Source: an uncultured Bacilli bacterium (GTDB lineage: Bacteria; Bacillota_I; Bacilli_A; RF39; UBA660). Taken from it: a stretch of DNA of 34,594 bases. The notes beneath the pieces were generated by a model. It saw nothing but the letters and a program-made list of their open reading frames with translations, made no database searches and was not told the DNA's origin. Numbering within the stretch: position 1 is the stretch's first letter; the number at the start of each line of letters is the position of its first letter. The stretch spans positions 1 through 34,594 of the forward strand of contig CANQZX010000001.1 of NCBI GenBank assembly GCA_947628445.1. Direction: 5' to 3'. Position numbers and translations under genes: made by a program. Of the stretch, positions 2,656 through 33,914 are shown piece by piece.

Positions 2656-3477
2656 TCAACCCCGGAAGCGATTAATACCAATTGCTAGTAAATTCTCAGG
2701 GATACGATTTCTTTTAGCAACTTTTTCTACTGAACCATTTTCCGCAATATAACGACATTCGGCTACAAAGTTACGACCTAACCGGAAATCATTAAGTAAA
2801 AAGACCACGGGTGCTAAAACTTTTGTTAATTCGGGATTTTCCCAAATACTTTTAGCAAAAATAACCATTCTTTCAGGGGCTAAAAAAGAGCCTAATTTCA
2901 TAATTTCATAAATACTATCATCAAGTTTGTCTAAAACTGCAGCTAAATCAATTTTAGATATTTCTTGTAGATAACTAGCTACACTTTTAGAATCATATTC
3001 TCGATGAGCAAAAAATAATTTCATTGCTAATTCAAATTGAATTTGGTTAAAGTTTTCCTTTTTCGCCATTTCTTCCGTATAGGTTACAAACTTAGCGTAG
3101 CCTAATAAATCTTCATAATTGTAAACATCAGGCATTTTTTCAATTAAACGGGATAGACCTTCATATAAAGCAAAAGCATAACGCCGGTCAAAGTTCATTA
3201 GTTTATTCATCATACTTGAAGCAAGAGCCATTTCCTTATCTTCTAACTTATGTCTTTCCATTTGTTTATATAAACCCACGGTTCCATGTAAAATTAAGTC
3301 TTCTTGCCACTTAATATAATCTTCTTCCAGCTTTTTGTCAAAAGGCGGAAAAGAGAGTTCTCCTTGATAAGATAACTCTGTTCCATCACTAAAATACAAT
3401 TTTTGATCATCAAAATTAAGTGTATGTTCCCTTTTTTCTTCGATAACTTTCTTTGCTAGAGTACCACTTAAATACAT
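2656..3477 (-). CDS. hypothetical protein (no recognisable family)
   Basis: 276-aa ORF with its own promoter. The likely start is the ATG at 3477, preceded by GGGTGA. I recognise no motif in it. Confidence 0.6.
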   Translation of the reverse strand: MYLSGTLAKKVIEEKREHTLNFDDQKLYFSDGTELSYQGELSFPPFDKKLEEDYIKWQEDLILHGTVGLYKQMERHKLEDKEMALASSMMNKLMNFDRRYAFALYEGLSRLIEKMPDVYNYEDLLGYAKFVTYTEEMAKKENFNQIQFELAMKLFFAHREYDSKSVASYLQEISKIDLAAVLDKLDDSIYEIMKLGSFLAPERMVIFAKSIWENPELTKVLAPVVFLLNDFRLGRNFVAECRYIAENGSVEKVAKRNRIPENLLAIGINRFRG

Positions 3478-3500
3478 CAAAATCACCCACTTGGCTGCCT

Positions 3501-3528
3501 ATTATATCATTTTTTAGTAATTTTGCAA
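3501..3528 (-). promoter_or_regulatory. sigA-type promoter for the 2656-3477 gene
   Basis: Minus strand reads TTGCAA (3523-3528), a 16-nt spacer, then TGATATAAT with TATAAT at 3501-3506. Confidence 0.5.
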
Positions 3529-3549
3529 GTTTTTCCACTTTTTATGATT

Positions 3550-4875
3550 TTAATCCATTGCTAAACGATAAGGATTTAATTGCGTTCCATTGCCTTTCAA
3601 TAATTTAGTTTGAGAATTTAAATAAAAAACCGGTCTTATCAAATTATTAATGGTATCAGACACTGAATTTGGATGGCCTATACTACCACTTGAAGAAACA
3701 AAAAAACTATGGGATGTACTAGTATTATTATGGGTAATAGTCCATTCAAATAAACCAAGATATAACCAATTTTCTTCAATCGCCGAACGATAATCGGCAT
3801 TATCAGCGCCAGATGTAACTTTTGACCAATTATTAGGTAAAGCTGCATACATATAATCAGAAACATACATGAGTCCAATATAATTGGAATAAAATTGAGG
3901 ATTGGTTTTTGTTAATTCTTTATTAAAAACCGCTTTAGCATTACTTACGGCAATTTCTGACCAAGATCCTCCAGTTATATTCCAATCATGAAACATAATT
4001 AATTTTCGCCATTTTTCCTTTAAATAAGTATTATAGTAAAAATCATTTAAATTATTTTTATTTAAACGACTTTCAAGCCAATTATTAGTTCCTGTACCAC
4101 CTGTTTCTTGTGCTCCATTCCAAAAATAAGTGGCTTTATTTTTAAAATGGGTATTTTCTAAGCGATAAGTACTAAGGGGATTACTAGTAATAGTTTGAGC
4201 ATAATCACCAATTCCTTCACCACCGGTTTGGTCAATAGTTGTATAATCTGCTTTAATTAATTTCATTTCATATTGATTATCATTGTTTAAAAAAAAGCCA
4301 ATTATTTGATATAAATTTTCAATATTACAATTATCATCATCACTATTAAAACAAACAAAATTATTTACTGTTTCTCTTTTCCCCGTATATCGATAACTTA
4401 AATCTTCCGCCTCTAAATTATAATTTTCCATGCCATCATAGTCGGCCTTCCCATCATGATAAATTAGTGCACTATCCTTTTGATAGTTTTGAGTAAAACA
4501 TTCACTCATGTTTTGACCACGACATAAACTAGCGATATTATCCTTATCTAAGTATACATAGCATTTATCACTTTTATCCGCTATTACTTTTACCTTTCCA
4601 TCTTCAAAACTTATTTTACTACCATTTTCACATTTACTTAATTTAGCATTAAATACATATCCCTCTTGAACAAAACTAGCATCTTTACTTTCCTCATACT
4701 TACCTGTTCCTGCTTCACTTTCGAGCATCATACTTATAAAATTATTATTTTTAACTTTTTCCTCGTTAGAAATTATTTTAGCTACAGGATTATTATCTTG
4801 ATAAATTATAATTATGATATTTAATAATAACCAGGTAATTAATATTATATTTAAAAAGGAAAATTTAGTTTTCAT
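3550..4875 (-). CDS. membrane-anchored surface protein, paralog A (conserved N-terminal module plus variable C-terminal module)
   Basis: The ATG at 4875 follows AGGTGA. An N-terminal hydrophobic anchor FSFLNIILITWLLLNIIIIIY is present. Residues up to about 167 are nearly identical to paralog B. The C terminus carries IGLMYVSDYMYAA, IRPVFYLNS and GNGTQLNPYRL motifs. Confidence 0.8.
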   Translation of the reverse strand: MKTKFSFLNIILITWLLLNIIIIIYQDNNPVAKIISNEEKVKNNNFISMMLESEAGTGKYEESKDASFVQEGYVFNAKLSKCENGSKISFEDGKVKVIADKSDKCYVYLDKDNIASLCRGQNMSECFTQNYQKDSALIYHDGKADYDGMENYNLEAEDLSYRYTGKRETVNNFVCFNSDDDNCNIENLYQIIGFFLNNDNQYEMKLIKADYTTIDQTGGEGIGDYAQTITSNPLSTYRLENTHFKNKATYFWNGAQETGGTGTNNWLESRLNKNNLNDFYYNTYLKEKWRKLIMFHDWNITGGSWSEIAVSNAKAVFNKELTKTNPQFYSNYIGLMYVSDYMYAALPNNWSKVTSGADNADYRSAIEENWLYLGLFEWTITHNNTSTSHSFFVSSSGSIGHPNSVSDTINNLIRPVFYLNSQTKLLKGNGTQLNPYRLAMD

Positions 4876-4925
4876 TTTCTTCACCTATTTTCCCCTTTAT
4901 TATATATATATATATATATATGCAA
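4384..4925. repeat. direct repeat copy A (5' half-kilobase of the gene plus 5' UTR plus promoter)
   Basis: By-eye alignment with 5712-6253 shows only scattered substitutions over about 540 nt. Confidence 0.85.
4899..4925 (-). promoter_or_regulatory. promoter with a (TA)n spacer for paralog A
   Basis: Minus strand reads TTGCAT (4920-4925), a 15-nt all-T/A alternating spacer (4905-4919), then TATAAT (4899-4904). The uninterrupted alternating tract spans 4901-4921 (21 nt). Confidence 0.6.
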
Positions 4926-4931
4926 GTTTTT

Positions 4932-6203
4932 TTAATTCATTGCTATACGATAAGGTTTTTCTTTAGTACCATTACCACTGATAAGATTGATCGTTGGTTT
5001 AAGATAAAAGGCTGGTCTTACAGTATAAATATAAGATACTTTATCATATATGATATAGCCTCCAAATGCAAATAATACACCTTGTTGAGGATACATGACT
5101 AATTCCCAATATTTAGGATACAACCAATCAATATTTCTAAAAGTAATATTAGGATCTACATTACATAAATGTCCCTCACCATCATTACCACAAGAGTTCC
5201 AATACTTATTTTCAGCAGCATAAAAATAATCCGATATATACATTAATCCTATTTTAGCATCAACGGTTGCTATTTCTTTATTATTATCAATATTATATAA
5301 TTCTCGAGCATTAAGACGAGAAGGATGTTTTTCATCAAGTAAATTGCTGTTATTGGCCGTAATCCATTTATGACTATTAATATAGTTTTGCCATATAGAA
5401 TTTAAATAGCTATTTAAATAATAACCATTTAAATTAATGTTATTTAAATTACTTTCAGCCCATAACGGCTTAGAAGCATCGCCATTACTAGTATTCCAGC
5501 AATACCGAATAGTATTATTGTCATCTGTTCCACAATAAGCTCCATTTGTACCTAAATGTTTAGTTGATGCTTCCGTAGCTTTAATTAATTTTGCTTCATA
5601 ATTTCCTTCTTCATTTTGAAAGAAACCAATGATGCGATATAAATTATCTTCTAAACAAACCTCATCATTAGAATTAAAACAGACATAATTATTAACAACA
5701 TCATTAGTTCCCGTATATCGATAGCTTAAATCTTCCGCTTCTAGTTCATAATTTTCCATGCCATCATAGTCGGCCTTACCATCATGATAAATTAGTGCAC
5801 TATCCTTTTGATAGTTTTGAGTAAAACATTCACTCATATTTTGACCACGACATAAACTAGCGATATTATCCTTATCTAAGTATACATAGCATTTATCACT
5901 TTTATCCGCTATTACTTTTACCTTTCCATCTTCAAAACTTATTTTGCTACCATTTTCACATTTACTTAATTTGGCATTAAATACATATCCCTCTTGAACA
6001 AAACTAGCGTCTTTACTTTCCTCATACATGCCTGTTCCTGCTTCACTTTCGAGCATCATACTTATAAAATTATTATTTTTGACTTTTTCTTCGTTAGAAA
6101 TTATTTTGACTATAGGACGATTACCTTGATAAATTATAATTATGATATTTAATAATAACCAGATAATTAATATTATATTTAAAAAGGAAAACTTTGGTTT
6201 CAT
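4932..6203 (-). CDS. membrane-anchored surface protein, paralog B (same N-terminal module, different C-terminal module)
   Basis: The ATG at 6203 follows AGGTGA. The N-terminal ~167 aa are nearly identical to paralog A. The C terminus is divergent but keeps IGLMYISDYFYAA, VRPAFYLKP and GNGTKEKPYRI. Confidence 0.8.
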   Translation of the reverse strand: MKPKFSFLNIILIIWLLLNIIIIIYQGNRPIVKIISNEEKVKNNNFISMMLESEAGTGMYEESKDASFVQEGYVFNAKLSKCENGSKISFEDGKVKVIADKSDKCYVYLDKDNIASLCRGQNMSECFTQNYQKDSALIYHDGKADYDGMENYELEAEDLSYRYTGTNDVVNNYVCFNSNDEVCLEDNLYRIIGFFQNEEGNYEAKLIKATEASTKHLGTNGAYCGTDDNNTIRYCWNTSNGDASKPLWAESNLNNINLNGYYLNSYLNSIWQNYINSHKWITANNSNLLDEKHPSRLNARELYNIDNNKEIATVDAKIGLMYISDYFYAAENKYWNSCGNDGEGHLCNVDPNITFRNIDWLYPKYWELVMYPQQGVLFAFGGYIIYDKVSYIYTVRPAFYLKPTINLISGNGTKEKPYRIAMN

Positions 6204-6253
6204 TATCCTCACCTATTTTCCCCTTTATTATATATATATATATATATTGTCAA
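5712..6253. repeat. direct repeat copy B (5' half-kilobase of the gene plus 5' UTR plus promoter)
   Basis: Partner of 4384-4925. Confidence 0.85.
6227..6253 (-). promoter_or_regulatory. promoter with a (TA)n spacer for paralog B
   Basis: Minus strand reads consensus TTGACA (6248-6253), a 15-nt alternating spacer (6233-6247), then TATAAT (6227-6232). The uninterrupted alternating tract spans 6229-6247 (19 nt). Confidence 0.65.
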
Positions 6254-6262
6254 GGTAACGAA

Positions 6263-6482
6263 GTTACTATTCACAGATAAATTATGCAAAAATAATTTTT
6301 CCCACTTTTGGTATTAAAATTGATATAAAATTGGAAATTAAAATCTAAAAAGTAAATATTTTTTGTATACTTCTCCCACTTTGAAGAAAATGGTGTTTTT
6401 AACAACTTTTTTCTGAAATAACTGCAAACCAATATATTATCTAGATTTGCGAGTTTTTTTAAAAAAATCTGTGAATAGTAAC
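6263..6482. mobile_element. MITE-like non-coding element (220 bp) with 16-bp perfect terminal inverted repeats and a flanking 9-10-bp direct duplication
   Basis: GTTACTATTCACAGAT at 6263-6278 is the exact reverse complement of ATCTGTGAATAGTAAC at 6467-6482. GGTAACGAA(G) sits immediately outside both ends, at 6254-6262/3 and 6483-6491/2. The interior has only a low-complexity 80-aa ORF. Confidence 0.5.
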
Positions 6483-6527
6483 GGTAACGAAGCTTTGCAC
6501 ATATGATTATCAAGGCAAAAAATTCTC

Positions 6528-7397
6528 TTATTTGGCGTTATCATCTATTAGATTACAATGCGTACTAGTACATTTTTCATTCTTTAATTCCAGTTCAATA
6601 GTCGAGTGTTCAATATGCCATTTGGCTAGCATATTCCGAATATCTGCCTTTATCTTACTACTATAACGGTTACAAACAACATGCATGGTGGCAAAATTAT
6701 GATAGCCATCAATACTGCGTAAATGAAAATGGTGGATATCAATAATACCGTTAATTTTCATTAATTCTTGCTTTAACTTGGCTAAATCAATATCCGCGGG
6801 CACTTTTTCGAAAAATAAATCCATAATTTTTTGAACTTGGCAGCCCGCATGATAGAAAATATATAAAGCCACAGCAATCGAAAGAACAGCATCCAAATAA
6901 GTAATTTGGGTTATGCGCATAATAATAGCCCCAATTAAAACTACAACCCAGCCCAAAACATCCTCTAACATATGTAGATTAACGGCCTTTTCATTTAAGG
7001 AGTTACCATCTTTAGTATAAAGACAAGCTAGTAGATTAATCGCTACACCCAAAATGGCTAAATAAAGAATACCATCATAATTTAAAGGTACGGGATTAAT
7101 AATTCTTTTAATAGCCTCAATTATTACAACAAGGGAACCAATTAATAAAATAACCGTTGTAATAATGCTTCCTAAAACAGAATATCGAACATAACCATAA
7201 GTATATTTATTGTTGGCTTTTTGATGACTCTTTTTTTCTAAAATAAAGGATAAGCCAATACTTAAAGCATCGCCAAAATCATGCAAAGAATCTGATAAAA
7301 TGGCAATACTGCCGGTTAAAAAGCCACCAATTAGTTCAATAACCGAAAAAACTAAATTTAAAAGAAAAGCTATGAATATATTTTTAACTGTTTTCAT
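6528..7397 (-). CDS. czcD: cation diffusion facilitator family metal exporter (CzcD/ZitB-like)
   Basis: The N-terminal region LLNLVFSVIELIGGFLTGSIAILSDSLHDFGDALS is typical of the CDF family. Six TM segments are apparent, with a His-rich cytoplasmic tail region. Confidence 0.8.
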   Translation of the reverse strand: MKTVKNIFIAFLLNLVFSVIELIGGFLTGSIAILSDSLHDFGDALSIGLSFILEKKSHQKANNKYTYGYVRYSVLGSIITTVILLIGSLVVIIEAIKRIINPVPLNYDGILYLAILGVAINLLACLYTKDGNSLNEKAVNLHMLEDVLGWVVVLIGAIIMRITQITYLDAVLSIAVALYIFYHAGCQVQKIMDLFFEKVPADIDLAKLKQELMKINGIIDIHHFHLRSIDGYHNFATMHVVCNRYSSKIKADIRNMLAKWHIEHSTIELELKNEKCTSTHCNLIDDNAK

Positions 7398-9807: not shown

Positions 9808-10506
9808 TTATTTTAATAAGGCCTTGGTTATTGTTACTTTTTCGCAACTATCACTTTTTTCATTATAAGTATATTCCTCGCTTGAGCACTTTTTAGTTGC
9901 TGTTCCTGTTTCTGTTTCCACACATTTAGAACCCTCTAATTCACCCTTCGTACAAGAATAAGTTGTTATTACTTTAACCGACTTATGACATTTAAAATCG
10001 TTGCCTAAAGTATAACCATCTTCACATTTAGCAATACTTTTTGCTTCCGCGGGGGTTTCATAACAATCTTCATTTGGTCCTTGACGACAAATCCGAATGA
10101 TACAAGCGCCATCTTTAACTCCTACTGCTTGATAATAATAACCATTACTTTCTTGATGTTGCGTGTAACTTTCCATACACTCATAATCAAATCCTGGTTG
10201 TTTCGTATCCGTAGTACTTAGACACATATCACCCTTTAGTTCATAACCAGTAGCGCAGCTTTTGTTTGCTTTAGCATTAGTTGTCGTTGTTTTAACACAC
10301 TTGCCATCGGTTACTTTAAAACCTTCTTCGCATTCGATAATAGCTTCTTCCGTAGCCACAACTTCACAATTTTCACCCTTTAGCGTGCCTTCTTCACAAT
10401 AATATTCTTTTTCGTTTGCTTTAGTTTCTTTGGTCTCTTTACTACCACAACCGGCAAAAGTTAAGACAAGGATTCCACACATTAAAATACTAAATAACTT
10501 TTTCAT
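9808..10506 (-). CDS. Cys-rich modular lipoprotein, family member 4 (most divergent)
   Basis: Signal peptide with lipobox LTFAGC. The mature part has 16 Cys arranged in repeated C-x2-G-[YFT]-x-[LV]-x-G-x2-C modules. The N and C termini are homologous to 11000-13142. Confidence 0.8.
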   Translation of the reverse strand: MKKLFSILMCGILVLTFAGCGSKETKETKANEKEYYCEEGTLKGENCEVVATEEAIIECEEGFKVTDGKCVKTTTTNAKANKSCATGYELKGDMCLSTTDTKQPGFDYECMESYTQHQESNGYYYQAVGVKDGACIIRICRQGPNEDCYETPAEAKSIAKCEDGYTLGNDFKCHKSVKVITTYSCTKGELEGSKCVETETGTATKKCSSEEYTYNEKSDSCEKVTITKALLK

Positions 10507-10999: not shown

Positions 11000-11205
11000 T
11001 TATTTTTCTAAGGCCTTCGTGGTCGTTATTTTTTCACATTGCTTACTTTCGGCATTATAAGTAAAACCATCAGTTTTACAAGTATTGGTTACCTCTTTAG
11101 TATCCGTAATCGTACATTTTGAACCACTTAATTTTCCTTCAGCACAAGTGTAGCTTGTTTTAACGGTACTTGTTTTATAACATTTACCATCAATTTCTTT
11201 GGTAT
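11000..11205. repeat. conserved 3' block of the lipoprotein genes (copy 1 of 3)
   Basis: About 200 nt nearly identical to 11733-11938 and 12447-12652. It encodes ...KCTITDTKEVTNTCKTDGFTYNAESKQCEKITTTKALEK. Confidence 0.8.
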
Positions 11206-11716
11206 CACTAGAACATGCCGTAACTGTAGTATATTCTGTTCTATTAATTTCCCCTCCATCGCATTTGCCTTCATACCAATGTGTACAAGCGCTATACCAA
11301 CATTCACCATTTTCTTCGTAAACTGTATTTTTGCTTGTTTTACCATCAATATCAGTATATTCACCAATATCAAATTCTTTAGGTAAACGGCATTCTTGAG
11401 TAGTCACTTTATCATAAGTTTCATTACTTAAACAAGTACTGCCACTTAAAGTAAAACCTTCACTGCAAGTTTTGGTGGCGGTAGCATTCATCGTTGTCGT
11501 TTTAACACATTTGCCATCCGTTTGTTTATAACCATCTTCACATGTTGCCACAGCTTCTTCGGTTTCAACTGCTTCACAATTTTTTCCTTTTAAAGTTCCT
11601 GTTTCACAATAATATTCTTTTTGATCTTCTTTTGTTTCCTTGGCTTCATTACTACCACATCCCGCAATAGTTAAAACTAGGATTCCACATAATAAAATAC
11701 TTAATCCTTTTTTCAT
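11000..11716 (-). CDS. Cys-rich modular lipoprotein, family member 3
   Basis: The ATG at 11716 follows AAGGAA. Lipobox LTIAGC. Shares the same N-terminal and C-terminal modules. Confidence 0.8.
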   Translation of the reverse strand: MKKGLSILLCGILVLTIAGCGSNEAKETKEDQKEYYCETGTLKGKNCEAVETEEAVATCEDGYKQTDGKCVKTTTMNATATKTCSEGFTLSGSTCLSNETYDKVTTQECRLPKEFDIGEYTDIDGKTSKNTVYEENGECWYSACTHWYEGKCDGGEINRTEYTTVTACSSDTKEIDGKCYKTSTVKTSYTCAEGKLSGSKCTITDTKEVTNTCKTDGFTYNAESKQCEKITTTKALEK

Positions 11717-11732
11717 AAAATTCATTCCTTAA

Positions 11733-11938
11733 TTATTTTTCTAAGGCCTTCGTGGTCGTTATTTTTTCACATTGCTTACTTTCGGCATTATAAGTAAACC
11801 CATCAGTTTTACAAGTGTTAGTTACTTCTTTAGTATCGGTAATCGTACATTTTGAACCACTTAATTTTCCTTCTTTACAAGTATAAGTTGTTTTTACGGT
11901 ACTTGTTTTATAACATTTACCATCAATTTCTTTCGTAC
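11733..11938. repeat. conserved 3' block of the lipoprotein genes (copy 2 of 3)
   Basis: See 11000-11205. Confidence 0.8.
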
Positions 11939-12425
11939 CACTTGGACAGGCATTAACTGTCGTTGGTTCATATTCTTCTATTACACCATCCATACATATA
12001 TCATCTCTGTATTTAACACACATAGATGTTGAACATTTGCCTTCATCATTCAAACTACCTTTTGTAAAACCTTCAGCCGCTAAATCTTGAGGTAAAATAC
12101 ATTCTTGCGTTGCTACTTTTTCGGTTGCTTCATTACTGACACATGTACCGCCATTTAAAGTATAGCCATCACTACAAGTTTTCGTAGCTGCAGCTTTTAT
12201 AGTCGTCGTTTTAACACATTTACCATCTGTTAGTTTATAGTCATCTTCGCACGTTGCCACAGATTCTTCTGTTTCAACTGTTTCACAATTTTTTCCCTTT
12301 AAAGTTCCTGTTTCACAATAATATTCTTTTTGATCTTCTTTGGCTTCTTTAGCTTCATTACTACCACATCCCGTAATAGTTAAAGCTAAGATTCCACATA
12401 GTAAAATATTTAATGCTTTTTTCAT
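11733..12425 (-). CDS. Cys-rich modular lipoprotein, family member 2
   Basis: Lipobox LTITGC. The N-terminal roughly 90 aa and C-terminal roughly 66 aa are nearly identical to its neighbours, while the core is different. Confidence 0.8.
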   Translation of the reverse strand: MKKALNILLCGILALTITGCGSNEAKEAKEDQKEYYCETGTLKGKNCETVETEESVATCEDDYKLTDGKCVKTTTIKAAATKTCSDGYTLNGGTCVSNEATEKVATQECILPQDLAAEGFTKGSLNDEGKCSTSMCVKYRDDICMDGVIEEYEPTTVNACPSGTKEIDGKCYKTSTVKTTYTCKEGKLSGSKCTITDTKEVTNTCKTDGFTYNAESKQCEKITTTKALEK

Positions 12426-12446: not shown

Positions 12447-12652
12447 TTATTTTTCTAAGGCCTTCGTGGTCGTTATTTTTTCACATTGTTTACTTTCGGC
12501 ATTATAAGTAAAGCCATCCGTTTTACAAGTATTGGTTACTTCTTTCGTATCGGTAATGGTGCATTTAGAACCACTTAATTTGCCTTCTTTGCAAGTATAA
12601 GTCGTTTTTACGGTGCTTGTCGTATAGCATTTGCCATCGACTTCTTTCATAC
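12447..12652. repeat. conserved 3' block of the lipoprotein genes (copy 3 of 3)
   Basis: See 11000-11205. Confidence 0.8.
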
Positions 12653-13142
12653 CATTTTCACAGCCTAATTCATAAATTGGTTCAACATAATCTTCATAGC
12701 AATCGGTACCATCAGCATTTTGACAAATTTGCACGATACATTTATGATCTTCCGCCCGCACTGAACGATAGTAATAATTTCGTTCCGGATCATAAGCAAA
12801 TTTTTCTTGAATGCCACCGCGACAAGCGGGAACTAATTCACGATCGACACCAGTTTTGCTAAGGCAACTACCATTTTTAAGTTCATAACCATCACTGCAA
12901 GTTTTGGTGGCTGTAGCTTTTACGCTTGTTGTTTTAACACATTTACCATCGGTTAATTTATAACCATCTTCGCAAGTTAACTCGGCTTCTTCCGTGGCTA
13001 TAACTTCACAATTTTGGCCCTTTAATGTACCCTCTTCGCAATAATATTCTTTTTGATCAACAAGCGCTTCTTTTGTTTCACCACAGCCAGCAAGTGTTAA
13101 AATAAGCACACCACATAATAAAAATTGCATAGTTTTTTTCAT
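12447..13142 (-). CDS. Cys-rich modular lipoprotein, family member 1 (operon-proximal)
   Basis: The true start is the ATG at 13142 (MKKTMQFLLCGVLILTLAGC), 8 nt after AGGAG. The ORF-track N-terminal extension merely reads through the TA tract. The core resembles that of member 4. Confidence 0.8.
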   Translation of the reverse strand: MKKTMQFLLCGVLILTLAGCGETKEALVDQKEYYCEEGTLKGQNCEVIATEEAELTCEDGYKLTDGKCVKTTSVKATATKTCSDGYELKNGSCLSKTGVDRELVPACRGGIQEKFAYDPERNYYYRSVRAEDHKCIVQICQNADGTDCYEDYVEPIYELGCENGMKEVDGKCYTTSTVKTTYTCKEGKLSGSKCTITDTKEVTNTCKTDGFTYNAESKQCEKITTTKALEK

Positions 13143-13167: not shown

Positions 13168-13196
13168 ATTATATATATATATATATATGAACGCAA
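13168..13196 (-). promoter_or_regulatory. promoter with a (TA)n spacer for the lipoprotein operon
   Basis: Minus strand reads TTGCGT (13191-13196), a 17-nt spacer made of TC plus 15 nt of alternating A/T (13174-13190), then TATAAT (13168-13173). The uninterrupted alternating tract spans 13170-13188 (19 nt). Confidence 0.65.
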
Positions 13197-16355: not shown

Positions 16356-16368
16356 TGCTATTTTTTAA

Positions 16369-16740
16369 TTAAGCAAGTTCTACTTCAGCACCAGCTTCAG
16401 TTAATTGATCAGCAATACCTTGAGCTTCTTCAGCAGGAATGTTTTCTTTAACATTACCACCATTGTCCGCTAAAGCCTTAGCTTCAACTAAACCTAAACC
16501 AGTAATTTCTTTTAATAACTTGATAACTGCAATTTTGTTGCCACCAGCGCTTTTTAAAACAACTGTTTTAGTACTTGATCCCGCATCTTCGCTAGCACCA
16601 GCTGCAGGAGCAGCAGCAACGGCAACAGCCATTGGATCAACACCAAATTCTTCTTTCATTGCATCGACTAATTCTTTTACTTCAAGAATTGTCATTTCTT
16701 TTAATGAACTAATAAATTCATCTTTTGTTAATTTTGCCAT
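16369..16740 (-). CDS. rplL: 50S ribosomal protein L7/L12
   Basis: N-terminal dimerisation segment, Ala/Pro hinge AVAAAPAAGA, and C-terminal domain KEITGLGLVEAK. The start overlaps the rplJ stop (TAATG). Confidence 0.95.
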   Translation of the reverse strand: MAKLTKDEFISSLKEMTILEVKELVDAMKEEFGVDPMAVAVAAAPAAGASEDAGSSTKTVVLKSAGGNKIAVIKLLKEITGLGLVEAKALADNGGNVKENIPAEEAQGIADQLTEAGAEVELA

Positions 16741-17240
16741 TATTCATCCTTCCCTTCCTTTTGTTCTGAATATAAATTCAAACTAATAGCCAAATCTTTA
16801 ACATATTGCATCATACCACCGGCCAACATTGTAAGTAAACCTTCTCTTGATGGTATTTCCGCATATTCTTTAATTGTAGCTAAATCCGCTACATCGCCAC
16901 TAATAATCCCAACTCTAATGTCTAATTTGTTATTCTTTTTCGCAAATTCTGAGACAATTTTAATTGGTTCTAGTAGCGTTTTCCCAAAGCAAATTGCGTT
17001 AGGGCCTTCCAAAAAGCCATCTAAATTAATTTTTAATTCATCAGCGGCTCTTTTTAGTAAAGTGTTTTTATAAATTTTAACATCAGCTTCAACGGGTTTT
17101 AATTCTCTTCTTAAAGCTTTTAAATCATCAACCGTTAAACCTTGATATTGGAATATAATAACTGCTTCACTGGTCTTTAGCTTATCAACTAATTCCGCAA
17201 CAATTGCTTTCTTTTGGGCAATTATTTTTTCGCTTGCCAT
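16740..17240 (-). CDS. rplJ: 50S ribosomal protein L10
   Basis: Position between rplA and rplL, 166 aa, and a typical L10 N terminus (KKAIVAELVDKLK...GLTV..L..LR). Confidence 0.9.
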   Translation of the reverse strand: MASEKIIAQKKAIVAELVDKLKTSEAVIIFQYQGLTVDDLKALRRELKPVEADVKIYKNTLLKRAADELKINLDGFLEGPNAICFGKTLLEPIKIVSEFAKKNNKLDIRVGIISGDVADLATIKEYAEIPSREGLLTMLAGGMMQYVKDLAISLNLYSEQKEGKDE

Positions 17241-17244
17241 ATTT

Positions 17245-17350
17245 CCTCCTTTTTTAAAATTAAAAGCCTCCGCATAGGGAAGCTTAAAAAAATACTCATT
17301 TTAAGATTTCCCTCGGTAGGACTTACTAATTGCCTACTGTCTTCGGTTTT
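17245..17350 (-). promoter_or_regulatory. ribosomal protein L10 leader-like attenuator upstream of rplJ
   Basis: Minus strand reads CCGAAGACAGTAGG...CCTACCGAGG, a hairpin with an internal loop. It is followed by AAGCTTCC-CTATGC-GGAGGCTT plus a T-rich run, directly before the rplJ RBS. This position and layout match the Firmicute L10 leader. The assignment is from memory, with no covariance-model search run. Confidence 0.5.
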
Positions 17351-17376
17351 CATTTCGTATTATATTACATTAATAA

Positions 17377-18075
17377 TTAAATGTCAAAACTATTTTTATC
17401 AAGTTTAATACCAGGACCCATTGTTGTTGAAATTGTAATATTTTGGATGAAGACACCCTTAACAGATGCTGGTTTAGCTTTCGCAATAGTATTAACAACA
17501 TATTCTAAGTTTTCTTTTAACTTTGAAGCATCGAATGATACTTTACCAATAATTGTATGGACATTACCGAATTTATCATTCTTGTAAGTAACCATCCCTT
17601 TTTTGATATCTTTAACGGCATCAGCAACTTTGGTTGTAACCGTTCCAGTTTTAGGGTTTGGCATTAAATTACGAGGCCCTAAAATGTTCCCGATTTTACC
17701 AAGTTCTGGCATCATATCAGGCGTTGCCACGATGACATCAAAGTCAAACCATGCTTCATCTTTAATTTTCGCAATTAAATCTTTATCGCCAACATAGTCT
17801 GCACCGGCTTTTTTGGCTTCTTCTGCAAAATTACCACTGGCAATAACTAAGATTTTTTTGGTTTTACCCGTTCCATGAGGAAGAGATAAAGAACCTTTTA
17901 ATTGTTGGTCAGATTTTTTCGCATCAAGTTTTAAACGAATGGCAACTTCAACCGTACTATCAAATTTAGTAACAGATGATTCTTTGACTAACTTAATGGC
18001 ATCATCAATACTATAAGTTTTAGTTTTATCAATATTTTTTGATGCTTCCACATATTTCTTACTATATTTTTTCAT
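17377..18075 (-). CDS. rplA: 50S ribosomal protein L1
   Basis: 232 aa with typical L1 sequence (FDSTVEVAIRL..D.....Q.KGS..LPHGTGK). Confidence 0.95.
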   Translation of the reverse strand: MKKYSKKYVEASKNIDKTKTYSIDDAIKLVKESSVTKFDSTVEVAIRLKLDAKKSDQQLKGSLSLPHGTGKTKKILVIASGNFAEEAKKAGADYVGDKDLIAKIKDEAWFDFDVIVATPDMMPELGKIGNILGPRNLMPNPKTGTVTTKVADAVKDIKKGMVTYKNDKFGNVHTIIGKVSFDASKLKENLEYVVNTIAKAKPASVKGVFIQNITISTTMGPGIKLDKNSFDI

Positions 18076-18106
18076 TTTTCCCTCCTAACTGTGGTTCATT
18101 AGCGGA

Positions 18107-18718
18107 TTAATTATTTTCTTCTTCAGTTTCGCTTTGTTCAGCTTCTTCATCAGCATGCGTTGGAACTTCAGCACTAGCAGTAGCCATTTCTTTAGCTTCC
18201 GCTTCAAGTTCTTCTAATTCAGCGTCCCTCTTAGCTTGTTCTCTTTCTTCTTCGGCTGCTTCAGCTGCTTGTTCGGCAAGTTCGGCATCGTTTAGACCTT
18301 TAACCGCAATACCCATGTTTCGAGCAGTACCAGCAATTTCTTCCATGGCTGCTTCTACATCATAAGCATTTAAATCAGGTAACTTTTCTTCTGCAATTTT
18401 ACGAAGTTGATCCTTCGTAATTGTTGCCACGATTTCATTAGCACCTTTTTTACTAGCTTTTTGAATACCAGCGGCTTTCTTTAATAAAAAGGCCGCAGGG
18501 GCAGTTTTTAAAACAAAATCAAAGCTCCGATCTTCATAAATAGAAATTTCACAAGGAATGACATCTCCCATTTTATCTCTCGTTGCTTCATTGAATTTGC
18601 TACAAAAATCGCCTAAATTAATTCCGGCAGGTCCTAAAACTGTTCCAACTGGTGGAGCTGGGGTTGCTTTACCAGCTTCAATTTGTAATTTAATTTTTTT
18701 AACGACTTCTTTGGCCAC
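18107..18718 (-). CDS. rplK: 50S ribosomal protein L11 with an approximately 60-aa acidic C-terminal extension
   Basis: GTG start after AGGAGGTG. The first roughly 140 aa are canonical L11 ([24 protein letters not shown]). The tail is an Ala/Glu-rich run ending [13 protein letters not shown]. Confidence 0.9.
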
Positions 18719-33839: not shown

Positions 33840-33914
33840 GGAGCCGTAGCCAAGTGGTAAGGCGTGGGTCTGCAAAACCTTGATTCACCGGTTCAAATCC
33901 GGTCGGCTCCTCCA
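33840..33914 (+). tRNA. tRNA-Cys (anticodon GCA), CCA encoded
   Basis: Acceptor stem GGAGCCG/CGGCTCC. Anticodon loop CUGCAAA. T arm ACCGG-TTCAAAT-CCGGT. Discriminator U, as expected for Cys, followed by CCA. Confidence 0.9.

Follow-up and report, generated by a model that had tools for sequence, protein, structure and literature searches.

The 34,594-nucleotide stretch of DNA analyzed here (the window) contains a gene for a predicted membrane-anchored protein, paralog B, whose promoter carries two perfect consensus hexamers separated by a spacer made entirely of alternating A and T. On balance, and with confidence only a little better than even, we interpret this site as a contingency switch that, as in Vmm, Vmc, and hif, would work through a (TA)n promoter spacer, here one unit below its optimum, in an RF39-like gut lineage. 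The relevant features are the following.

6253-6248, minus strand: -35 hexamer TTGACA of paralog B (direct read)
6247-6233, minus strand: spacer of paralog B, ATATATATATATATA, 15 nt of alternating A/T
6229-6247, minus strand: tract of paralog B, a perfect (AT)9A and a maximal alternating run of 19 nt, reported as (TA)9.5 by Tandem Repeats Finder
6232-6227, minus strand: -10 hexamer TATAAT of paralog B (direct read and homologous promoters)
6204-6226, minus strand: leader of paralog B, AAAGGGGAAAATAGGTGAGGATA
6213-6206, minus strand: ribosome-binding site of paralog B, GGTGAGGA
4932..6203, minus strand: coding sequence of paralog B, 423 aa
3550..4875, minus strand: coding sequence of paralog A, 441 aa

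The region upstream of paralog B reads, on the minus strand, ...cgttacc TTGACA ATATATATATATATA TATAAT aaaggggaaaataGGTGAGGAtaATG, which agrees with the sequence-only reading in its description of a TTGACA-15-TATAAT promoter with a wholly alternating spacer and a tract at 6229-6247. The first four bases of the -10 (6229-6232) belong to the tract as well, the spacer proper being 6233-6247, and the repeat runs uninterrupted between the two hexamers, TTGACA-(AT)7A-TATAAT, at 6253-6227. The promoter lies 23 nt upstream of the ATG at 6203-6201 and is followed by a good ribosome-binding site. We took this ATG as the start codon, as the homologues align from it and not from the in-frame GTG at 6212 chosen by the ORF lister. 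A gain of a single TA unit, already pointed out in that reading, would bring the spacing to 17 bp (15 + 2) and complete a promoter matching the consensus at 12 of 12 positions. Two alternative -10 hexamers overlap the site, TAATAA at 6230-6225 (17-bp spacing) and ATAATA (16-bp spacing). Re-reading confirmed that TAATAA is the sole alternative at 17 bp and that it has no final T, which makes it unlikely to be the true -10. In the relatives with poly-T promoters described below, the leader's GGG directly follows the -10, and by that position TAATAA is nearer than TATAAT. The paralog B site was absent from the list produced by a scan of the window for promoters with 16- to 18-bp spacers, which fits its 15-bp spacing. 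An alternative sigma factor with a shorter spacing was considered and rejected, as no matching motif was found and the TTG and TATAAT elements are SigA-like.

Paralogs A and B are 56% identical by BLASTP (61% in alignment), and their first ~170 residues are nearly identical. Paralog B has an N-terminal transmembrane helix at residues 7 to 27 and no second helix of that kind; the N-terminus, MKPKFSFLNIILIIWLLLNIIIIIYQGN, carries no lipobox cysteine and so does not place the protein in a lipoprotein family like those of Vmm and Vmc. The body contains cysteines, looks noncytoplasmic, and ends in a VRPxFYL...GxGT..PYR motif, and the AlphaFold model (mean pLDDT of 78) has the N-terminal helix followed by a mixed beta/alpha body. 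Neither paralog matched a Pfam family, a PDB sequence search with the protein gave no match, and a PDB fold search gave no significant match. Neither A nor B reached the gathering score of DUF6273 (PF19789), a domain that 3 of 14 relatives match weakly (E >= 0.002) and for which two database relatives have a precomputed hit. A database search with paralog B gave 3780 relatives (E <= 0.001), of which nearly all lack annotation, and genome scans found many copies of the family per genome. These data point to a membrane-anchored and probably extracytoplasmic protein. Surface exposure, as in the earlier description of the product, is something we infer from the helix and the noncytoplasmic-looking, cysteine-containing body. 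Two further entries listed in the paralog A cluster, P0122 and P0123, are unrelated 49-aa fragments and were discarded.

The genomes that code for the family are uncultured "Bacilli/Tenericutes" gut MAGs of the RF39 type, for example, Clostridium sp. CAG:609 and "Candidatus Onthocola." The nearest relatives of the window are rabbit-gut "Lapin" MAGs, one contig of which (L008) has 83.5% DNA identity to positions 16365-18550. The long ORFs of the window are intact with TGA as a stop, which indicates the standard genetic code even though the organism is Mollicutes-like. The window also has two tRNA genes, tRNA-Thr (GGT) at 1172-1245 on the minus strand and tRNA-Cys (GCA) at 33840-33914 on the plus strand. 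Exact-protein look-ups for paralog B, with both start codons, returned no other contig.

The tract of paralog B is one of three alternating runs of at least 19 nt in the window (4901-4921, 6229-6247, and 13170-13188), where a first-order Markov model of the window predicts 3.7e-5 and 300 simulated windows contained none. All three lie between a TTG and a TATAAT, ahead of a membrane protein or lipoprotein gene. The other two promoters are as follows.

4899..4925, minus strand: promoter of paralog A, TTGCAT (4925-4920), 15 nt, TATAAT (4904-4899)
13168..13196, minus strand: lipoprotein promoter, TTGCGT (13196-13191), 17-nt spacer, TATAAT (13173-13168)

The tract of paralog A (4901-4921; 21 nt, 10.5 units) starts 7 nt past the stop codon of paralog B, and its -10 is followed by the same leader as that of paralog B. 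The spacer of the lipoprotein promoter is TC(AT)7A, that is, TC plus 15 alternating nucleotides, within a tract of 19 nt (13170-13188; 9.5 units). Of the three TA-tract promoters in the window, two (A and B) are thus in a 15-bp register and one is in a 17-bp register. With 9.5 units in B, 10.5 in A, and 9.5 in the lipoprotein promoter, the three tracts exceed the approximately 8 dinucleotide units that we took as sufficient for slippage, the known examples having 9 to 12. The lipoprotein gene (12447-13142, minus strand) starts at the ATG at 13142 with MKKTMQFLLCGVLILTLAGC... and codes for a signal peptide ending in the lipobox LTLAGC; its orthologues in sister species have ordinary TTGACA-18-TATAAT promoters with no tract. 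It is followed by a series of lipoprotein paralogs (11733-12425, 11000-11725, and 9808-10506), none of which has its own promoter tract. No A or T homopolymer of at least 9 nt was found in the window.

A G+C content of ~30% and the 2 to 5x coverage of the related assemblies could suggest that the tracts are chance low-complexity sequence or an assembly artifact. We give this explanation almost no weight, as independent assemblies carry the identical sequence and the placement of the tract is conserved in other genomes, which together with the run statistics effectively refute it.

To place the promoter within its family, we compared the 110 nt upstream of 134 family genes. Among promoters without repeats, the best candidate was almost always TTGACA/TTGACT/TTGATT-17-TATAAT-like, with a few at 18 bp (17-bp examples are L017, L019, L027, L034, L036, L040, L041, L043, L049, L055, L065, L071, L072, L075, L077, and L079). 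As repeat-free homologues use 17 bp, we can assume that the usual preference for 17 bp holds for the polymerase of this lineage and that 15 bp is off-optimum, as the sequence-only reading had proposed on general grounds; a single TA unit is therefore enough to move the paralog B promoter between nonoptimal and optimal spacing.

Simple repeats of at least 10 nt, just upstream of or within the promoter, were found in 36 of the 134 regions (11 TA and 25 poly-T). The TA type is limited to the window species, three of the Lapin MAGs, and a single Logan contig. The poly-T type, a tract of 14 to 39 nt directly ahead of the -10, was seen in other gut MAGs (rabbit, human, and animal) as well as in metagenomes of the human gut (L013, L023, L028, L044, L048, L050, L053, L060, L061, L063, L069, L091, L093, L095, L103, L108, L109, L116, L120, L132, L140, L141, L147, L151, and L162), and the leader that follows its -10, GGGGAAAATAGAGGTG, is homologous to the leader in the window. 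The length of the poly-T tract differs between samples: one orthologous group includes versions with 15, 17, 18, 19, 20, 21, 22, and 24 T, and the same gene was seen with 17 versus 14 T (L091/L093) and with 18 versus 22 T (L103/L132). This variation is likely a case of homopolymer-driven phase variation in RF39-like human-gut bacteria. Different repeat types at one promoter position, together with length polymorphism, are the usual mark of contingency loci. In JGI metagenomes, an exact 24-nt search with the tract end plus the leader gave 0 matches, and a protein-based scan recovered relatives of at most 36% identity, mostly from the human gut, none of them with a TA tract.

Three contigs (L024, L039, and L139) have tandem repeats of 12 to 15 nt, aagaggcttcgggat and similar sequences, upstream of a family gene in place of TA or poly-T, a third type of promoter repeat. 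In another contig (L073, about 285-395), a sequence resembling domain V of a group II intron, gccgtatgcgggaaagctgcacgtacgg, lies between a TA-tract promoter and a family gene; the tract or its vicinity may have been the site of an intron insertion, with the neighboring L074 as the uninterrupted version.

The TA promoters differ from the poly-T promoters in their constancy. All 13 distinct family promoters with the layout of paralog B, from at least five genomes, are exactly TTGNNN-15-TATAAT (A and B of the window, L002, L003, L004 with two, L008, L014, L018, L021, L059, L073, and L076, the genomes being that of the window, the Lapin MAGs CANROR, CANRAJ, and CANPZG, and a Logan contig). In all 13, the TTG is kept at a fixed distance from the end of the tract. 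The length of the tract offsets its flank, with 17 nt after TTGACAGA, 19 after TTGNNN, and 21 after TTGN. The only TA cases at 17 bp are L074 (TTGATA-17-TAAAAT) and the lipoprotein promoter. All 19 TA tracts are uninterrupted, while the 3' halves of the -35 hexamers and the leaders have diverged; such purity despite diverged flanks is typical of microsatellites that slip actively.

Read-level polymorphism of the tract had been named as the check on a switch, and the lengths available turned out to be invariant in a few consensus assemblies of low coverage (2 to 5x), mostly from one study, in which minority variants are invisible. No length difference was found for paralog B (19 nt in the window, L083 [ERZ27249530], and L084 [ERZ27249541], the last two reached via neighboring genes), for paralog A (21 nt in the window and L001), or for the lipoprotein promoter (19 nt in both the window and strain L168, the two proteins being 94% identical). 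Two more contigs, L087 and L002, provided no length comparison, as they stop short of the promoter or only just enter the next tract. The constant register implies that the majority state is under selection.

In the switch that we favor, a housekeeping (SigA-type) promoter would have a pure (TA)n microsatellite as its entire spacer, and slippage during replication would add or remove TA units there. At 17 bp, both the -35 and the -10 would be engaged and transcription would be strong; at 15 bp, only the -10 would be usable and transcription would be low. The sequenced 15-bp state would then be a resting, low-expression state shared by paralog A and the homologous paralogs of related genomes, so that most copies of the family would be silent in most cells, each a single slippage step away from full activity. 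The simplest way to reconcile a switch with the constant register is a cycle with two states, ON at 17 bp and a tight OFF at 15 bp, that would rest mostly in OFF, hence the 15 bp in consensus assemblies, and that would avoid a leaky or rarer 19-bp state. Tract purity, placement, the canonical 17-bp rule, and the family-wide repeats are what favor the switch. We infer both that TA slippage occurs at a useful rate and that expression is low at 15 bp and high at 17 bp. Against the switch, a freely slipping TA tract should scatter as the poly-T tracts do, and the constant register needs an extra assumption, either a tight OFF state one step from ON that is strongly selected or a bias toward contraction. 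The proposal of a slipped-strand switch sitting in a weak state therefore gained from the geometry, the 17-bp rule, the TA-tract lipoprotein promoter at 17 bp, the family repeats, and the poly-T variation and lost from the invariance of the TA lengths. We consider it rather doubtful that the 15-bp register is itself a selected design, be it a default-silent array in which every copy is one step from activity or a TA spacer that permits the use of 15 bp under some structural or supercoiling condition.

The same invariance is the strength of a different explanation, in which TTG-15-TATAAT with a (TA)n spacer is a fixed, selected working form and slippage plays no regulatory role. Such a promoter could be deliberately weak and constitutive, or its activity could depend on TA flexibility, on easy melting or a cruciform, on supercoiling, or on a tract-binding protein. 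The register is invariant across 13 promoters whose proteins have diverged to 35 to 40% identity, assemblies of the same locus show equal lengths, and tract length covaries with the flank while the TTG-to-TATAAT distance stays constant, a signature of stabilizing selection on geometry and not of a random walk; the poly-T promoters of the same family, meanwhile, do scatter. However, 17 bp is the canonical spacer in the lineage, and a 15-bp spacer is not expected to let sigma-70/SigA engage both hexamers; negative supercoiling helps over-long spacers, not short ones. The tract also occurs at 17 bp (in the lipoprotein promoter and L074) and so is not tied to the 15-bp register, and a pure microsatellite kept without slippage is hard to explain. 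Neither a candidate regulator nor an alternative-sigma motif was found. We regard a fixed architecture as a minority possibility and as the main rival of the switch. It is improbable, in our estimation, that the promoters are relics. In that scenario, a TA unit would have been lost from an ancestral promoter, duplication and gene conversion would have carried the contracted form to the paralogs, expression would come chiefly from read-through or other promoters, and the tract would be in slow decay. The promoters are clearly homologous, with cTTG and tract end in common and leaders that are related, and A and B are tandem duplicates with near-identical 5' regions, with an A/B chimera in L084. 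In addition, 100 to 180 nt separate the TA promoter from the gene in L003, L073, and L076, where a second promoter-like site lies closer to the start, a possible decayed copy is present at 6438-6462, and no terminator is predicted between the genes. Decay without selection should nevertheless give interrupted tracts and scattered lengths, whereas all the tracts are perfect next to diverged -35 3' halves and leaders, and TTG and TATAAT are conserved in every copy.

The closest precedents for the switch are found in mycoplasmas. Vmm of Mycoplasma mycoides is controlled by the insertion and deletion of dinucleotides within the spacer of its promoter, and the ON and OFF states of Vmm and Vmc are set by the gain or loss of TA units (PMC2628566, PMC10502178). 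As in Vmm and in Vmc of Mycoplasma capricolum, a (TA)n tract fills the spacer between the -35 and the -10 of a gene for a surface protein (a presumed one in our case), and the host is a low-G+C organism in or near the Mollicutes. The Vmc genes of Wise et al. 2006 reportedly form a multigene set in which each gene has its own promoter of this kind, with an ON spacing of 17 bp. The proteins are, however, unrelated, Vmm and Vmc being small repetitive lipoproteins, while the product described here has ~425 aa, an N-terminal anchor that looks uncleaved, no lipobox, and a weak DUF6273 match in relatives. The organism also belongs to an uncultured gut commensal lineage with the standard genetic code and is not a Mycoplasma pathogen. 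Finally, switching of Vmm and Vmc was shown experimentally, whereas the present case is known from sequence comparison.

A second precedent is hifA/hifB of Haemophilus influenzae, where changes within a functional range of (TA)9-11 alter the spacing between the -35 and the -10 (PMC2651432). The sequenced hif loci have (TA)10 or (TA)9, the optimum or one unit short of it (PMC2651432, Table 7), and hifA loci have TA in some cases and poly-A in others (PMC2651432). The 17- and 15-bp registers and the TA and poly-T types found here parallel the (TA)10/(TA)9 and TA/homopolymer alternatives of hif (van Ham et al. 1993), but the hif tract serves two overlapping divergent promoters and not one promoter per gene, and both the organism and the gene product differ. 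In vlp of Mycoplasma hyorhinis, with a poly-A promoter, and in porA/opc of Neisseria, a promoter repeat switches each surface-protein copy independently (PMC10502178). These systems are the closest analogue of the poly-T promoters in the human-gut relatives; unlike the TA promoters, they have homopolymer tracts, and they involve different protein families.

RF39-like bacteria are common, uncultured, reduced-genome members of the human and animal gut, and their surfaces are almost uncharacterized. A search of the literature for RF39 together with phase variation found nothing relevant. The mechanism is known, and what is new in the literature searched is the lineage, the protein family, and the uniform state one unit short of the optimum. 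The locus and its relatives suggest that repeat-bearing promoters drive a large membrane-anchored family, as they do for the variable lipoproteins of pathogenic mycoplasmas. If this is true, mycoplasma-style contingency promoters would extend to abundant uncultured commensals of the human and animal gut, where host immunity or phages may exert the same kind of pressure. Should the 15-bp register prove to be selected or usable, the invariant geometry would be a new regulatory principle and not a snapshot.

The upstream neighbor of paralog B is a cation-efflux transporter gene (6528-7397). No intrinsic terminator was predicted in the interval that separates B from the transporter gene or in the one that separates it from A, and the lone terminator-like site in 3300-6700 lies inside A, no more than chance gives. 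Without a predicted terminator upstream of either gene, read-through may provide basal expression, which makes the OFF state of paralog B uncertain. The -35 of paralog B is abutted by the following insertion.

6254..6491, minus strand: MITE-like insertion with inverted and direct repeats

The element itself (6263-6482, 220 bp) has perfect 16-nt terminal inverted repeats, GTTACTATTCACAGAT, at 6263-6278 and 6467-6482, and is flanked by a 9-nt direct repeat, TTCGTTACC, at 6254-6262 and 6483-6491, like a target-site duplication. A copy of the element end is found in strain L168 (about 225-280), 9 nt upstream of the lipoprotein -35, where the window is empty. The target-site-like repeat and this second copy at another locus suggest that the sequence is a small mobile element. 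Each of the two known copies directly precedes a TA-tract promoter. An invertible promoter (an inverton of the fim-switch type) was discarded, as inverted repeats of that type bracket the promoter, whereas both of those found here lie upstream of it.

At the syntenic locus of the sister MAG CANRAJ, the transporter gene is directly followed by a homologue of a 276-aa gene, with no A or B in between, which indicates that A and B are lineage-specific insertions or duplications. The corresponding junction (L085 3870-3990, compared with 3487-6527 of the window) holds short tandem repeats, acaataataccaaataggtggaaaa. The chimera of assembly ERZ27249541 (L084 1-1400, compared with 3550-6253 of the window) is a single gene in which the promoter and N-terminus of B are joined to the body of A (P0002); it could be either a real A/B recombinant with one copy deleted or an assembly collapse across the near-identical 5' regions. 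Last, L001, which is otherwise 99.5% identical to the window, has an extra segment of ~20 nt in paralog B (570-600, corresponding to about 5245-5260 of the window) that would encode ...NDVNSQNY..., as well as a break of the reading frame within a short A run; the indel is either strain-level variation or a low-coverage error.
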